Position numbers and translations under genes: made by a program. Of a stretch of DNA of 6,274 nt, positions 1 to 6,245 are shown piece by piece. How positions within the stretch are numbered: position 1 is the first letter of the stretch; each line of letters opens with the position of its first letter. The stretch lies in IMG/VR virus record IMGVR_UViG_2695420597_000012, one strand, 5' to 3'. The DNA comes from a virus. Taxonomy: Duplodnaviria > Heunggongvirae > Uroviricota > Caudoviricetes. The notes below the pieces were generated by a model, which did no database searches, was not told where the DNA came from, and saw only the letters and a program-made list of their open reading frames with translations.

Positions 1-269
1 AGCCTTCAGGGAAAAATATCATCAGATGGCTGCTTAAAAAAAGAACAAATGGTAGTGTCCGCTATTGCCAGTACACCTCAGGATAGCGGTCATGTGATGC
101 CGGTTTCCCGGTAACTCAGCACCGGTATCTGAGTCAACGTTTTCTCTACTGGGTCATTTCCGATACGCCCTGCCTGCTGACAGGCTTTCATCACATCTGA
201 AAATATAGCACCCTGACTGATACTGTAGTACCTAAGGTTCCAGAAACTGTGATGTATCCGGCACAGAAA

Positions 270-288
270 AGCCCCTCCGGAGAGGGCT
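270..288 (-). other. Imperfect GC-rich stem-loop (7 bp with one bulge) followed on the minus strand by TTTCT; possible weak terminator or RNA 3' end
   Basis: agcccctccggagagggct. The unit 2 copy at 1901-1920 has one extra G, giving a perfect 8-bp stem. Confidence 0.3.
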
Positions 289-484
289 GGAGAGTGGCGC
301 TATGTGCCATTGCATGATGCCGGGTGCCTCCCGGTGAATTCAGTACCAGCACCTGAATCCGCGATTATCCCATATACCTACTCGCTGATTGCCCCTCCGC
401 ACAGGGGGATTCACCATGCCAGTTTCTTTTAACAAACTCCCCGCAAAACAGACAACTGTCAACCGTCTGAATTGTGAGACATTT

Positions 485-510
485 AAAAAAAAGGCCCGCA
501 AAAGCGAGCC
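485..510 (-). terminator. Rho-independent terminator directly after the tRNA cluster
   Basis: Minus strand reads ggctcgc-tttt-gcgggcc followed by TTTTTTTT (plus-strand A8 at 485-492, stem 493-499/504-510). It lies 15 nt after the CCA end of tRNA-Arg(UCU). Confidence 0.65.
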
Positions 511-524
511 AGGGAAAATAAGTG

Positions 525-601
525 TGGCGCGTTGTACTGGATTCGAACCAGTGACCGATTGCTTAGAAGGCAATTGCTCTGTCCGGCTGAGCTAACAACG
601 C
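525..601 (-). tRNA. argO: tRNA-Arg, anticodon UCU
   Basis: Hand-folded cloverleaf on the minus strand: acceptor GCGTTGT/ACAACGC, D-stem GCTC/GAGC, anticodon stem ATTGC/GCAAT with loop CTTCTAA, T-arm ACTGG-TTCGAAT-CCAGT, discriminator G, encoded CCA. The symbol is assigned from context (lambdoid ileZ-argN-argO cluster), not from a search. Confidence 0.8.
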
Positions 602-1845: not shown

Positions 1846-1900
1846 TAAAACAACAAAGTCCATAAGGAGTTTACTCACATCTGACAAAATCAATATAAAC

Positions 1901-1920
1901 AGCCCCTCCGGAGAGGGGCT
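1901..1920 (-). other. Perfect 8-bp GC-rich stem-loop (agcccctc-cgga-gaggggct)
   Basis: Direct inspection. Minus-strand downstream sequence is U-rich (gtttatattgatttt) but not a clean U-tract. Confidence 0.3.
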
Positions 1921-2116
1921 GGAGAGTGGCGCTATGTGCCATTGCATGGTGCCGGGTGCCTCCCGGTGAATTCAGTACCAGCACCTGAATCCGCGATTAT
2001 CCCATATACCTACTCGCTGATTGCCCCTCCGCACAGGGGGATTCACCATGCCAGTTTCTTTTAACAAACTCCCCGCAAACCAGACAACAGTCAACCGCCT
2101 GAATTGTGAGACATTT

Positions 2117-2455: not shown

Positions 2456-3477
2456 TCAAACGATTAAATCCTGAACTTCCCTGACTGTCTGCTCAAAACG
2501 TCCGGTCTCCAGTTCAACGCCAATCGCACGACGCCCGAGCGCCAGTGCCGCTTTTACCGTTGAACCTGAGCCCATAAAAAAATCTGCAACCAGGTCTCCC
2601 GGACGACTGCTTGCGCTGATTATCTGCTGCAGCATTTCTGCCGGTTTTTCGCACGGATGTTTCCCGGGATAGAACTGCACCGGTTTATGTGTCCACACAT
2701 CCGTGTACGGCACCTGCGCCGTCACACCAAAATACCGCCGCAGATGCTTATATTCACTCTGCAGCTCCACATACTGCCGGTTCAGTGACGTATACGTATC
2801 CACCAGCTGGTGGTGGGGCTTTTCCAGTTCACCGCGCTGATGTTTCTCTTCTGCCACCCGGGCAAACAGCGACTGTAATTTCAGATAATCGCTTTCGTTC
2901 GGTAGCTGCCACTGACTGGCACTGAACCAGTGCGACACCATGTTTTTCTTTCCTGTGGCATCTGCAATCTGTTTTGCCGTTATCCCCAGGGCCGCGCGCG
3001 CATCACGAAAGTAAGAAATCAGCGGGGCCATCACATGCTGTTTCAGTGCACTGCCCTTCGCCGCATACCCGGCATCTTTCGGACGATACGGCCCCTGATA
3101 ATGTTCCGCGAACAGAATGCGCTCTGTGGCGGGGAAATACGCCCGCAGGCTTTCCTTGTTGCATCCGTTCCAGCGTCCGGACGGCTTCGCCCAGATAATA
3201 TGGTTCAGCACACTGAAGCGTTCACGCATCATGATTTCGATATCAGATGCCAGGCGATGACCACAGAACAGGTAAAGACTTCCGGCAGGTTTCAGCACCC
3301 GCCAGAACTGCGCCAGACACTGGTCCAGCCACTTCAGGTAATCATCGTCGCCCTTCCACTGGTTATCCCAGCCCTCAGGCTTCACTTTAAAGTACGGCGG
3401 GTCCGTGACTATCAGGTCAACAGAATTTTCGGGTAACGACCGGATAAATTCCAGGCAGTCGGCGTTGATTAACTCAC
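2456..3477 (-). pseudogene. DNA amino-methyltransferase, diverged paralog (copy 2), N-terminally truncated at the junction with tRNA cluster 3
   Basis: About 10 amino-acid differences from copies 1 and 3, a C-terminus 3 codons shorter (LIV* versus LVSQNG*), and many silent nucleotide changes. DPPY is retained; motif I is DFFMGSGST. The frame runs upstream into tRNA-derived sequence with no in-frame ATG. Confidence 0.55.
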
Positions 3478-3502
3478 AAAAGCGAGCCAGGGAAAATAAG
3501 TG

Positions 3503-3579
3503 TGGCGCGTTGTACTGGATTCGAACCAGTGACCGATTGCTTAGAAGGCAATTGCTCTGTCCGGCTGAGCTAACAACGC
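3503..3579 (-). tRNA. argO: tRNA-Arg, anticodon UCU (copy 3)
   Basis: Identical to 525-601. Confidence 0.8.
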
Positions 3580-3592
3580 ATGATGCAGATAA

Positions 3593-3669
3593 TGGACCGC
3601 CATCGGGGACTTGAACCCCGCGCAGCCAGCTTCGAAGGCTGGCGCTCTTTCCTGATGAGCTAATGGCGG
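3593..3669 (-). tRNA. argN: tRNA-Arg, anticodon UCG (copy 3, variable-loop variant)
   Basis: Same as 615-691 except plus-strand A to G at 3625 (variable loop TTGCG to CTGCG in the tRNA). Confidence 0.65.
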
Positions 3670-3676
3670 TATGTGA

Positions 3677-3752
3677 TGGTGGCCCTTGCTGGATTTGAAC
3701 CAGCGACCTGGCGATTATGAGTCGCTCGCTCTCACCACTGAGCTAAAGGGCC
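3677..3752 (-). tRNA. ileZ: tRNA-Ile2-like, anticodon CAU (copy 3)
   Basis: Identical to 699-774. Confidence 0.8.
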
Positions 3753-3792
3753 GGGAGCCGCATAATAACGACGCGTAATTAATTCTTCAATA

Positions 3793-4851
3793 TCATCCGT
3801 TCTGGCTGACTAAATCCTGTACTTCCCGAACCGTCTGCTCAAAACGTTCAGTCTCCAGCTCAACGCCAATTGCACGACGCCCGAGCGCCAGTGCCGCTTT
3901 CACTGTCGAACCCAACCCCATGAAAAAATCTGCAATCAGGTCACCCGGACGACTGCTAGCGCTGATTATCTGCTGCAGCATTTCTGCCGGTTTTTCGCAC
4001 GGATGTTTCCCGGGATAGAACTGCACCGGTTTATGCGTCCACACATCGGTATACGGCACCTGCACCGTCACGCCAAAATACCGCCGCAGATGTTTATATT
4101 CACTCAGCAGCTCCGCATACTGCCGGTTCAGTGAGGTATACGTATCCACCAGCTGGTGGTGGAGCTTTTCCAGTTCACCACGCCGATGCTTCTCTTCTGC
4201 CACCCGGGCAAACAGCGCCTGTAATTTCAGATAATCGCTTTCATTCGGCAACTGCCACTGACCGGCACTGAACCAGTGCGACACCATGTTTTTCTTTCCT
4301 GTGGCATCTGCAATCTGTTTTGCCGTTATCCCCAGGGCAGCTCGCGCATCACGAAAGTAAGAAATCAGCGGGGCCATCACATGCTGTTTCAGTGCACTGC
4401 CCTTCGCCGCATACCCGGCATCTTTCGGACGATACGGCCCCTGATAATGTTCCGCGAACAGAATGCGCTCTGTGGCGGGGAAATACGCCCGCAGGCTTTC
4501 CTTGTTGCATCCGTTCCAGCGTCCGGACGGCTTCGCCCAGATAATATGGTTCAGCACACTGAAGCGTTCACGCATCATGATTTCGATATCAGATGCCAGG
4601 CGATGACCACAGAACAGGTAAAGACTTCCGGCAGGTTTCAGCACCCGCCAGAACTGCGCCAGACACTGGTCCAGCCACTTCAGGTAATCATCGTCGCCCT
4701 TCCACTGGTTATCCCAGCCCTCAGGCTTCACTTTAAAGTACGGCGGGTCCGTGACTATCAGGTCAACAGAATTTTCGGGTAACGACCGGATAAATTCCAG
4801 GCAGTCGGCGTTGATTAACTCACAACTGGATATTTTTACAGTATTAAGCAT
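3793..4851 (-). CDS. DNA N6-adenine or N4-cytosine methyltransferase (beta-class, likely orphan, phage type), full length 352 aa
   Basis: ATG at 4849-4851 with an in-frame TGA two codons upstream. DPPY (motif IV) lies near the N-terminus and FxGxG (DFFMGLGST, motif I) near the C-terminus, the IV-then-I order of beta-class amino-MTases. No adjacent restriction endonuclease ORF. The Shine-Dalgarno is weak. Confidence 0.85.
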   Translation of the reverse strand: MLNTVKISSCELINADCLEFIRSLPENSVDLIVTDPPYFKVKPEGWDNQWKGDDDYLKWLDQCLAQFWRVLKPAGSLYLFCGHRLASDIEIMMRERFSVLNHIIWAKPSGRWNGCNKESLRAYFPATERILFAEHYQGPYRPKDAGYAAKGSALKQHVMAPLISYFRDARAALGITAKQIADATGKKNMVSHWFSAGQWQLPNESDYLKLQALFARVAEEKHRRGELEKLHHQLVDTYTSLNRQYAELLSEYKHLRRYFGVTVQVPYTDVWTHKPVQFYPGKHPCEKPAEMLQQIISASSRPGDLIADFFMGLGSTVKAALALGRRAIGVELETERFEQTVREVQDLVSQNG

Positions 4852-4985: not shown

Positions 4986-5015
4986 ACAAATAAAAAAGCC
5001 TTCACTGCGGAAGGC
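4986..5015 (-). terminator. Rho-independent terminator after the 65-aa ORF
   Basis: Minus strand gccttccgcagtgaaggc (6-bp stem) followed by TTTTTTATTT. The ORF stop codon (5002-5004) lies inside the stem. Confidence 0.55.
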
Positions 5016-5199
5016 GTCTGTAACAACCGAACTGATAGTCTGCCAGACCCGCCATAACCAGCTGGGTCAGTATTAACTGGCAGCGTTCGCGTGAAAGGTA
5101 AGTATTCTGCGCTATCTCCCCGACTGTCGCCGGTTCGGTAACGCTTAATTCATTAAACACCACTCTGGCGGTTTCTGTCATATCCTGCTGTTTTAGCAT
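5002..5199 (-). CDS. Small 65-aa protein, possibly a winged-helix DNA-binding protein (PapI/FaeA-like pattern)
   Basis: ATG at 5197-5199 preceded by AAGGA 6 nt upstream (minus strand ggaaaaggaaaagacATG), with its own terminator. The segment TVGEIAQNTYLSRERCQLILTQLVMAGL resembles small winged-helix regulators. The fold assignment is by eye only. Confidence 0.4.
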   Translation of the reverse strand: MLKQQDMTETARVVFNELSVTEPATVGEIAQNTYLSRERCQLILTQLVMAGLADYQFGCYRRLPQ

Positions 5200-5317: not shown

Positions 5318-5341
5318 ATAAAAAACCCGCCAGGCGGCGGG
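5318..5341 (-). terminator. Strong rho-independent terminator ~85 nt downstream of Q (tR'-like)
   Basis: Minus strand cccgcc-gcct-ggcggg (6 GC pairs) followed by TTTTTTAT. Confidence 0.6.
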
Positions 5342-5390
5342 GTGTAAAAAATCTTCTAACGTCAGGCATAAAACGCCCATCGTTAGAGCA

Positions 5391-5423: not shown

Positions 5424-6245
5424 CTATCGCGTTACCCTCTTTAACTGCCGCTCCGCCCATGCCTCTTCAATGTCAAACCGAACCACCAACGTATCGTAAA
5501 AGCGTTTCACTGATTTTTTCCACGTATCAAGCGTGATAGCACTCGTCACTTTGCATATGGCATTAAATGCCTCCGTTGATGGCAGCCTTTCACAGCCACG
5601 ACCACCACAACGCTGGCAGTCTCTGATAACAGGCATACCACGTTTTACCGACTCTTCACGATGAATGGCGACACCACGCCCACGGCAATCCTTACAGGCG
5701 GTGGAAACCTCACCCTTTCCGCCACACTCCGGACAGGCAACTTTTACCACCTCCCGATTTTTTTTCCATTCTTCCCAGTAAGACGGATACACACCTTTCG
5801 TACACTTTGCCCATACCGGCGGCTTACCATCCGGATACTGGACCTTGTTTGTAAAAACTACGCTTTCAATAAATTTTTCCCCATAGCAACAAGGGCACTG
5901 CTTTTTACTCGCTGCGCTGCGGGCATAATCCTCAAAAGCGTACGAAGCCATAATGCGCATCACTACCGGTTTTATTTCTGCCGGGAGTTTTCTTAACGCC
6001 GCCACGCGATCACACCGACTGAGTGCATATTCTGTCAGCAATTCTGTTGCCCGCTCTCTGTCATTCATACTAATGCCCATTTTCCCAAGGAACGCAGAAA
6101 ACCCCATCTCAGCCCGATTCTGTGTCATGCCCTGCGCGGCCATCACATCAGTGATACTCAGCGCATCTTTCGACGTTGAGGCCGATGCATCAGTCAGGCC
6201 GGGGGATTTTGGGGAGTAGTATTTCGGTAAATCTTCCAGTTTCAT
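5424..6245 (-). CDS. Antitermination protein Q-like (long Q family with DnaJ-type CxxCxGxG zinc-finger repeats), 273 aa
   Basis: ATG at 6243-6245, stop TAG at 5424-5426. Three CxxCxGxG-type repeats (CPECGGKG, CKDCRGRG, CQRCGGRG) plus CPCC. It sits immediately upstream of a promoter/terminator pair and the methyltransferase-tRNA late region, as in lambdoid prophages. Family assignment is from memory, not a search. Confidence 0.6.
   Translation of the reverse strand: MKLEDLPKYYSPKSPGLTDASASTSKDALSITDVMAAQGMTQNRAEMGFSAFLGKMGISMNDRERATELLTEYALSRCDRVAALRKLPAEIKPVVMRIMASYAFEDYARSAASKKQCPCCYGEKFIESVVFTNKVQYPDGKPPVWAKCTKGVYPSYWEEWKKNREVVKVACPECGGKGEVSTACKDCRGRGVAIHREESVKRGMPVIRDCQRCGGRGCERLPSTEAFNAICKVTSAITLDTWKKSVKRFYDTLVVRFDIEEAWAERQLKRVTR

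Follow-up and report, generated by a model that had tools for sequence, protein, structure and literature searches.

The question raised by this locus is what occupies a gap of about 196 nt that follows two of its phage tRNA clusters, at the position where Stx phages carry stxAB. The original prediction saw a non-coding spacer there and set three readings side by side: a small RNA gene, a leader for a downstream gene, and a scar of cargo insertion. Our analysis shows that the spacer is the gene for a small RNA (sRNA) of the STnc100 family, the counterpart of EcOnc05 in prophage Sp4 of Escherichia coli O157:H7 Sakai, and makes it likely that its product is an Hfq-associated RNA acting in trans. 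This sRNA gene is already known from the literature, and its presence in the window—the whole stretch of DNA analysed, 6,274 nt—is a real but ordinary finding.

Layout of the window and its repeat units

The window corresponds to the late-regulatory region of a lambdoid prophage; along its minus strand come a Q antiterminator gene, a 65-aa ORF, a methyltransferase gene and tRNA clusters. The features that frame the spacers are:

6245..5424, minus strand: Q-type antiterminator ORF
5199..5002, minus strand: 65-aa ORF
4851..3793, minus strand: DNA methyltransferase
525..601, minus strand: tRNA-Arg(TCT), argO type, last gene of the unit 1 ileZ-argN-argO cluster (ARAGORN and Rfam tRNA match)
485..510, minus strand: intrinsic terminator of the tRNA cluster (terminator scan; GGCTCGC-TTTT-GCGGGCC, then T8), upstream hairpin of the original prediction
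264..288, minus strand: the sRNA's own intrinsic terminator in unit 1 (stem 288..270, one bulge, then UUUUCU), downstream hairpin of the original prediction

ARAGORN finds nine tRNA genes, all of them minus-strand and grouped as three consecutive tRNA(CAT)-tRNA-Arg(TCG)-tRNA-Arg(TCT) clusters; RefSeq labels the CAT tRNA of a corresponding unit tRNA-Ile. The methylase-tRNA unit occurs three times in the assembled sequence, with novel junctions at about 3476 and about 1848, and the spacer element is found in units 1 (484..289) and 2 (2116..1921), being absent from unit 3 because the tRNA terminator of that unit is fused directly to a truncated methylase gene. The sRNA gene has the same orientation as Q, the methylase and the tRNAs.

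The ORF list, the alignment and the terminator scan bear out the description of two near-identical non-coding spacers lying between minus-strand hairpins; the ORFs within them are all short and unconserved. Five SNPs had been counted between the copies, and four of these (at 317, 448, 457 and 466) do fall in the spacer, the fifth (498/2130) having been misplaced, since it lies outside, in the tRNA terminator. The idea that the spacer is bracketed by two hairpins holds on one side only. The upstream hairpin ends the transcript of the tRNA cluster (in unit 1, stem-loop 510..493 and T-run 492..485); the same terminator is found in unit 2 by alignment, and 3′ of argO in an Stx2 phage (L007). The hairpin on the other side, downstream, is where the sRNA terminates: it corresponds to the 3′ end of the Rfam model RF02076 and so belongs to the RNA itself.

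The two copies of the downstream hairpin differ as had been predicted. In unit 2, at about 1921..1900, it is a perfect 9-bp stem, followed by a poor, interrupted U-tract (UGUUUAUAUU). Unit 1 has lost one C, and because of this 1-nt deletion its stem is bulged; the terminator scan gives a 6-bp stem (or a longer, bulged one) with the tail UUUUCU. By this sequence test the sRNA gene has a Rho-independent terminator with a U-tail, the criterion used for a 3′ Hfq-binding module.

The spacer is an STnc100 gene corresponding to EcOnc05

Comparison with Rfam and with sequenced prophages gives the following matches:

259..448, minus strand: RF02076 STnc100, unit 1 copy (cmscan 123.6 bits, E 1.2e-27, model 1-206 of 206)
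1891..2080, minus strand: RF02076 STnc100, unit 2 copy (cmscan 132.4 bits, E 6.8e-30, model 1-206 of 206)
1901..2116, minus strand: unit 2 spacer and terminator hairpin (216 nt, 100% identity to Sakai prophage Sp4, EcOnc05 locus, and to phage Nil3)
91..215, minus strand: degenerate second STnc100-like module, 3′ of the unit 1 sRNA (own model R1, described below, 26.9 bits, E 2.5e-4)

Both copies match RF02076, "Gammaproteobacterial sRNA STnc100", over its full length, against a curated gathering score of 47 bits, and it is these matches that vindicate the small RNA reading among the three. In the Rfam scan of the window no family other than STnc100 and tRNA scored above threshold; P26, mir-2024 and Plastid-ycf2 were rejected as chance sub-threshold matches. 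The 91..215 module scores 21.8 bits with the Rfam model, below the gathering score, and is the counterpart of the middle of three modules in an O121 locus (L001). It lies downstream of the sRNA in unit 1, and an iraM fragment lies downstream of the sRNA in unit 2; in the corresponding unit in O121 the region continues into nanS-p, holin and lysozyme genes.

The 216-nt stretch of unit 2 was found as exact strings at L008 3210-3425 and L004 5930-6145. Family membership and identity with the EcOnc05 locus are thus both established from sequence. Expression and Hfq binding come from the literature. In the Hfq-RNA crosslinking study (Hfq-CRAC) of O157:H7 Sakai by Tree et al. 2014 (PMC4104026), EcOnc05 of prophage Sp4 has a CRAC peak at 1179806-1179914 (+) and a northern band of ~222 nt. 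Projected on the window the peak covers ~387..280, and the EcOnc05 northern probe (AATCCGCGATTATCCCATATACCTACTCGCTGATT) matches the plus strand of the window exactly at 356-390 and 1988-2022. In strain EDL933, 11 STnc100 copies are listed, with transcriptome reads for all, and one of 191 nt is northern-positive (PMC5331693). The RNA "STnc_100" has also been assayed by qPCR in outer-membrane vesicles of STEC (PMC12370729), with primers that match the window exactly. Our literature search found no functional study of EcOnc05 or EcOnc06.

Of 5,426 complete E. coli genomes, 2,756 have a match to a 301-nt query around the element, with as many as 13 sites in one genome, and the element is 95-99% conserved across thousands of genomes.

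The window carries an unoccupied stxAB site

Nothing toxin-like is present in the window, as had been proposed: in tblastn searches with Stx2A and Stx2B the best match anywhere in it has an E-value of 0.32, and in the first 600 bases there is none better than E 8. The position had been identified as that at which Stx phages carry stxAB, and comparison with Stx2 phages places it exactly:

478..484 (roughly 478-485), no strand assigned: empty moron (stxAB) insertion point, where homology to Stx phages breaks (alignment and direct sequence comparison)

In Stx2 phage II (L007), stx2B ends at 2414, STnc100 follows at 2489-2694 (207.7 bits), and the anti-sRNA AsxR lies convergently at 2748..2696; the same stx-STnc100 arrangement is found in phage 2851 (Stx2c), an Stx1 phage and an Stx2a phage. 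The tRNA terminator (GGCTCGCTTTTGCGGGCC-T(n)) is kept in the Stx2 phage, and right past its T-run the sequence diverges into the stx promoter region. Homology to the window is back ~45 nt past the stx2B stop, at TCACAATTCAG..GTTGACAGTTG, and the STnc100 match starts 75 nt past stx2B in the Stx phage and 76 nt past the tRNA in the window. Nil3, a toxin-free phage of an O157:H7 host, matches the window in layout. The element is thus present in Stx2 phages as well as in Sp4 and Nil3.

In Stx phages stxAB is inserted exactly between the tRNA terminator and the STnc100 gene. By this insertion-site geometry the window shows the same site in its unoccupied state, flanked by the tRNA terminator and the sRNA gene.

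The core of the RNA has a conserved structure

The helices of the sRNA, in unit 1 coordinates, are:

312..419, minus strand: structured core, helices P1-P5 (covariation among 112 distinct homologues; MAFFT and RNAalifold agree)
419..412 with 319..312, minus strand: P1
407..403 with 396..392, minus strand: P2, with a variable arm next to it
360..353 with 343..336, minus strand: P3/P4
334..330 with 324..320, minus strand: P5 (CCGGG-AGGCA-CCCGG)

Homologues were collected independently of Rfam by searching one genome per species for CACCGGGAGGCACCCGGCA, which gave at least 120 loci; the genera among the matches listed are Kosakonia, Enterobacter, Klebsiella, Citrobacter, Salmonella, Pantoea, Erwinia, Rahnella and Trabulsiella. 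A covariance model of the core (R1; 25 base pairs), built from six E. coli phage sequences, then gave 116 matches from 100 sources, comprising 112 distinct sequences from Enterobacterales. In the alignment of these 112, standard pairs fill 95.1% of the pair cells, and in 19 of the 25 pairs both partners vary. Covariation scores 0.404; shifting the partners by 1-3 columns lowers this to 0.072 or less, and the observed values were not attained in any of 500 shuffles. Because this alignment was fitted to R1, the analysis was repeated with MAFFT and RNAalifold on 34 diverse sequences, which returned the same helices plus a three-pair helix closing the variable arm, with compensatory changes in 14 of 27 pairs.

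Many pairs switch among G-U, A-U and G-C and are compatible with the sRNA strand only. These compensatory changes, the strand-specific G-U pairs included, show selection on RNA structure. Across the family the support from covariation lies in P1, P2 and P3/P4. P5 is invariant, but its motif UCACCGGGAGGCACCCGGCA was the bait of the search, so that its conservation carries no weight; GGUGAAUCCCCCU, outside the bait, is still at least 90% conserved. All core helices can form in both window copies; at 317 the SNP of unit 1 replaces G-C by G-U in P1, which preserves the pairing. We relied on covariation because folding of single sequences says little here: energies against shuffles give modest z-scores of -1.5 and -2.2, and the single-sequence fold of unit 1 differs from the family consensus.

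Compared with the body of an ordinary seed-plus-terminator sRNA, the core is much better conserved and much more intricate. Its overall layout—P1 stacked directly on the invariant P5, together with P2, the variable arm and P3/P4—is tRNA-like.

IpeX of the K-12 prophage DLP12 was considered as a possible characterised relative and set aside, as R1 finds nothing in the DLP12 late region (best score 9.6 bits).

Promoter, 5′ end and linker

Three further segments of the unit 1 gene bear on where the RNA starts and what it might pair with:

440..477, minus strand: conserved 5′ block TCACAATTCAG..GTTGACAGTTGTCTG, common to the post-tRNA and post-stxB contexts
426..434, minus strand: extended -10-like TGtTAAAAG, placed where other family members have their -10
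289..311, minus strand: linker from core to terminator, 23 nt, AAUGGCACAUAGCGCCACUCUCC, differing between E. coli subtypes

A promoter scan found no consensus sigma-70 promoter for the sRNA copies of the window. The 5′ block, in which a small hairpin is possible, holds two -35-like hexamers, TTGACA (462..457) and TTGTCT (455..450). The second of these (4 of 6 matches to a -35), an 18-nt spacer and TGtTAAAAG occupy positions equal to those of the promoter signals of other family members; the -10-like TAAAAG is weak, with no T at -7, and the start predicted from it is at about G419/G420, giving an RNA of ~157 nt. TTGACA was rejected as the -35: a 17-bp spacer leads from it to GAGTTT, it lies ~9 nt upstream of the usual -35 position of the family, and at 24-25 nt upstream of TAAAAG it is too far away to serve.

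Of 100 distinct upstream regions from the family, 37 have a best -10 match that ends 7-10 nt short of the P1 reference base, which is consistent with stand-alone transcription units. The same base has TTGAC motifs concentrated 35-38 nt upstream of it, and past the core a strict terminator follows in 48 of 113 distinct downstream flanks, at a median distance of 25 nt. The authors' estimate of the 5′ end of the homologue PasD2 is the first nucleotide of P1.

The bands reported in the literature are ~222 nt for Sp4, ~177 nt for Sp17 (EcOnc06) and ~235/247 nt for EcOnc27. Those of Sp4 and EcOnc27 are ~65 nt longer than a start at P1 predicts, which suggests a 5′ end near the beginning of the TCACAATTCAG block. 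Segment 440..477 is either promoter DNA or a 5′ extension present in the ~222-nt form; the RNA may start at P1 or at the TCACAATTCAG block, and two forms, or processing, may also account for the bands.

Among E. coli phages the linker (311..289) has at least three unrelated versions. Because it varies between subtypes, as a seed would, we regard it as a candidate target-pairing region.

Genomic context and alternative readings

In the family as a whole, the most frequent same-strand neighbours of the element are a Q antiterminator gene (PF03589), a median of 454 nt upstream, and downstream of the element a holin gene (~+140 nt), a lysozyme gene (~+540 nt), Rz and Rz1. The window shows the same late-region context, with Q, the methylase and the tRNAs ahead of the sRNA; the corresponding O121 unit runs on into nanS-p, holin and lysozyme, and in other genera the order is simply Q-RNA-holin. 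With Q, holin, lysozyme and Rz as its commonest neighbours, the element is therefore a long-standing resident of the leader between Q and lysis, around which the E. coli morons (methylase, tRNAs, stx, nanS-p) were inserted. Same-strand arrays are found in other genera, with at least five copies at some Pantoea loci and some copies abutting at a 130-nt period. A same-strand kdgM porin gene, followed by a pectate lyase gene, lies 0-200 nt (median 193) downstream of the core at 10 loci; usually no strict terminator separates core and kdgM, as for a 5′ UTR element. The array and kdgM loci pass the RF02076 threshold. Together with the unusually conserved core, they hint that the element may do more than pair with other RNAs.

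These contexts bear on two alternatives to a trans-acting sRNA, both of them improbable. In the first, the core would itself be a working RNA domain that binds protein, serves as a decoy or undergoes processing, and the window RNA would act through its fold; we give this about one part in five of our belief. An RNase P or RNase E substrate of this kind could set the 5′ end at P1. Were it true, phages would be deploying arrays of the core before their lysis genes, and some Enterobacterales would be using it in the kdgM leader.

The second alternative, which we hold to be slightly less probable still, is that the element acts mainly in cis, as a structured leader or insulator of the late operon. 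The sRNA terminator would then shield nanS-p and the lysis genes from transcription starting in upstream morons (tRNA, stx), or else the conserved junction would serve to bind a protein or ligand or in RNA processing, with the Hfq-bound RNA a by-product. The usual place of the family between Q and holin, lysozyme and Rz on the same strand speaks for this, as do the tandem arrays (three modules in O121, at least five at some Pantoea loci), whose copies abutting at 130 nt leave no room for a promoter or terminator. So do the 10 loci upstream of kdgM, usually terminator-free and 5′ UTR-like, and the at least 90% conservation of the unbaited GGUGAAUCCCCCU; UCACCGGGAGGCACCCGGCA is conserved as well, but was selected for by the search. 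However, a sequence identical to the unit 2 copy yields a discrete, abundant Hfq-bound RNA in a lysogen (PMC4104026), many family members have a promoter set to start at P1 and a terminator of their own, and RIL-seq has given many partners for the homologue PasD; the literature reports neither a ligand or protein partner of the element nor an effect in cis. A cis-acting or fold-dependent role is, in our judgement, improbable beside that of a trans-acting sRNA.

The original suggestion of a leader for a downstream gene survives in a weak sense only, in that the element would be read through toward nanS-p and the lysis genes during Q-antiterminated late transcription.

That the RNA encodes a small peptide is very improbable. 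The sense-strand ORFs concerned are:

191..352, minus strand: 53 aa, unit 1
1871..1984, minus strand: 37 aa, unit 2

Ribosome profiling of EDL933 gave high coverage for some STnc100 copies (3.21 for STnc100_10), and TATGGGATA, which is present in the window RNA, stands in the Shine-Dalgarno column of the authors (PMC5331693). Yet other copies, the northern-positive STnc100_4 among them, have low ribosome coverage (PMC5331693), the ORFs cross the variable linker and the terminator into unrelated flanks and so differ between units and between subtypes, and the variation seen is covariation of paired columns and not codon-like.

The weakest reading, that the spacer is a functionless insertion scar or a decayed protein gene (a lost toxin or moron), could draw on the known moron insertion hot spot and on "hypothetical protein" pseudogene ORFs placed on the opposite strand by PGAP/GenBank, but it is refuted by the compensatory changes, strand-specific G-U pairs included, and by the presence of the same element beside intact stxAB in Stx phages, and it fits neither the lack of StxA/StxB similarity (best E 0.32) nor a conserved, structured RNA gene that about half of complete E. 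coli genomes carry, with 95-99% conservation in thousands of genomes.

Proposed action of the sRNA

The likeliest function, by analogy with characterised relatives, would be that of an Hfq-associated, trans-acting regulator; the promoter, the 5′ end and the regulation of targets in trans are predictions. The RNA would consist of a short conserved 5′ region, a multi-helix junction closed by P1, the 23-nt subtype-variable linker and its own Rho-independent terminator. In the lysogen it would be made without Q, end at its own terminator and be bound by Hfq, and it would probably act by base pairing with host or phage mRNAs. On induction, Q-modified RNA polymerase would pass both terminators—that of the tRNA cluster and that of the sRNA, the two determined here—and the sequence would become part of the late-operon leader toward nanS-p and the lysis genes.

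The gap past the phage tRNAs should be annotated as an sRNA gene; it is neither junk nor a lost toxin. STnc100, in about half of complete E. coli genomes, is among the commonest prophage RNAs of this species, and according to a recent report haemolytic uraemic syndrome can be predicted from SNPs in the STnc100 copy downstream of stx2a.

Comparison with known systems

The short PR′ transcripts that end at tR′, StxS and lambda 6S RNA, resemble the window sRNA in being short, terminated, Q-independent RNAs of the late region that are passed by antiterminated polymerase, and StxS binds Hfq. They differ in starting at PR′ right after Q, and there is no relationship in sequence or structure. A PR′-tR′ leader of the StxS kind was rejected as an identity for the spacer, as the Q-adjacent terminators lie elsewhere, at 5341..5326 and 5390..5374; the window terminator nearest Q, at 5341..5326, is ~4.9 kb upstream of the unit 1 sRNA copy.

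The anti-sRNAs AsxR (RF02703) and AgvB (RF02702) share the neighbourhood of the moron site and are convergent partners of STnc100-type sRNAs in many phages, but they are unrelated RNAs of 51-60 nt on the opposite strand. Neither has a match in the window at E-values up to 1, where the positive control, L007, scored 88.1 bits.

PasD1 and PasD2 of EPEC E2348/69 (Pearl Mizrahi 2021; Zhu, Shabalina and Storz 2026 preprint) are homologues of the window core, and both bind Hfq and have many RIL-seq partners or targets. Like the window sRNA they lie in a lambdoid late region, between Q and the esterase or holin gene, and in both the core is followed by a single-stranded linker and then a terminator; on PasD2 the R1 score is 41.1 bits. 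Unlike it, they are too diverged in sequence for BLAST, and their linker is longer and U-rich, with the seed predicted by the authors, UGUGAG, in the segment equivalent to the window linker. This seed is absent from the window RNA, as is the PasD probe from the window. By our own reading of the sequence, the -35 hexamer of PasD2, TTGACT, is better spaced than that of the window.

EcOnc27 (sRNA103) is the STnc100 copy that lies 75 nt downstream of stx2B in Stx2 phages. It is bound by Hfq, and fimZ and espA transcripts increase when it is overexpressed, the effects on espA being apparently indirect. It shares with the window the RF02076 match (207.7 bits, in L007), the core helices, the 5′ block and the place of first element past the moron site. 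It differs in its variable arm and linker, and its probe is not found in the window; it has stxAB upstream instead of the tRNA terminator, and a convergent anti-sRNA partner, AsxR.

Closest to the window are EcOnc05 (Sp4) and EcOnc06 (Sp17), both Hfq-bound sRNAs (Tree et al. 2014) with the Rfam annotation STnc100. The EcOnc06 probe differs from the window by one mismatch, as judged by eye. Sp4 has a second, opposite-strand terminator 3′ of the sRNA, from the convergent partner EcOnc08, whereas the window has no such partner. Shared by EcOnc05 and the window are the 216 nt identical with unit 2, the exact probe match, the place directly after argO and the terminator.

Tandem units and their junctions

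The window contains, between positions 499 and 4851, three tandem copies of the methylase-tRNA unit, with or without the STnc100 sRNA. Units 1 (499-1845) and 3 (3477-4823) are 99.9% identical, and unit 2 is ~96% identical to each of them. The repeat junctions, and a short filler adjoining one of them, lie as follows.

~3476-3481, repeat junction
~1848, repeat junction
1849-1906, 58-nt filler separating the sRNA terminator of unit 2 from the truncated methylase

Both junctions are joined at the same position in the methylase gene (..GTGAG|TTAATC) through 5-nt microhomologies, and each was found in none of 5,426 complete E. coli genomes. The triplication reflects either a rare rearrangement or a chimeric assembly.

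The filler and the unit 2 sRNA terminator together span 82 nt and share 100% identity with 3′-end DNA of a prophage iraM, an anti-adapter gene lying convergent to the sRNA in other genomes; judged from this, unit 2 derives from another type of prophage.

Additional STnc100-like modules and overlapping annotations

A degenerate second module follows the unit 1 sRNA.

91-215 (-), degenerate STnc100-like module downstream of the unit 1 sRNA

It scores 26.9 bits (E = 2.5e-4) with R1, our covariance model of the STnc100 core, and 21.8 bits with the Rfam model, which is below threshold. At L001, the O121 locus, three STnc100-like modules (136.9, 30.1 and 161 bits) take up the 975 nt that separate argO from nanS-p. 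Arrays of three to at least five copies on the same strand are present at seven loci (L054, L085, L094, L101, L053, L082 and L099), either preceding lysis genes or carried by a Pantoea plasmid; the copies are usually spaced by ~220-370 nt, with a minimum of 130 nt, and the arrays at L094 and L101 also include a tRNA gene.

On the strand opposite the sRNA, public annotations carry orfs or pseudogenes labelled 'hypothetical protein'.

304-432 (+), in the window
7868-7993, in L001
2454-2777, in L006, another locus with the sRNA

These are almost certainly spurious calls over a conserved RNA gene.

STnc100 copies beside peptidase and porin genes

Six chromosomal STnc100 copies (L062, L106, L026, L031, L069 and L100) adjoin an M3-family peptidase gene, which we take to be dcp, at distances of 64 to ~1,600 nt. 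All six have a strong TTGACC-N17/18-TA(A/C)CGT promoter placed for a start at P1, the closing helix of the core, and those at L062 and L106 have a clean terminator as well. An STnc560 match lies ~1-1.5 kb from the STnc100 copy in four of the six (L026, L031, L062 and L106).

At eight further loci (L020, L035, L041, L043, L046, L055, L073 and L096), from Kosakonia, Klebsiella, Enterobacter and their relatives, the match to RF02076, the STnc100 family, precedes a kdgM-family porin gene on the same strand by 92-200 nt, and a periplasmic pectate lyase gene comes next after the porin gene, also on that strand. At most of these loci no clear terminator separates match and porin gene, so the RNA resembles an element of a 5′ leader rather than an sRNA standing on its own. 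KdgR-operator-like sequences were spotted by eye upstream at the kdgM-associated loci.

Comparison with PasD and Stx phages

The conserved 5′ block at 440-477 (-) starts with CUCACA, a motif reported in targets of the related EPEC sRNA PasD (Pearl Mizrahi 2021; Zhu, Shabalina and Storz 2026 preprint), whose predicted seed is UGUGAG. PasD could pair with the window sRNA if the long form of this RNA contains the block, through a match of only 6 nt.

Three sites resembling intrinsic terminators lie directly downstream of Q and after a 65-aa orf.

5326-5341 (-), intrinsic-terminator-like site
5374-5390 (-), intrinsic-terminator-like site
4998-5015 (-), intrinsic-terminator-like site

The site at 5326-5341 is likely the tR′ of a short PR′ leader analogous to StxS, the short Q-independent transcript from PR′ to tR′. 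A promoter scan found no consensus PR′ for this putative leader. Inspection by eye separately picked out TTGATT-N17-TAAATT at ~5411-5383, a PR′ candidate.

The last ~110 nt of the methylase gene (3793-3903) are ~92% identical to positions 681-830 of L007, Stx2 phage II, directly upstream of ileZ; the Stx2 phage thus seems to have kept no more of the methylase moron than a 3′ remnant.
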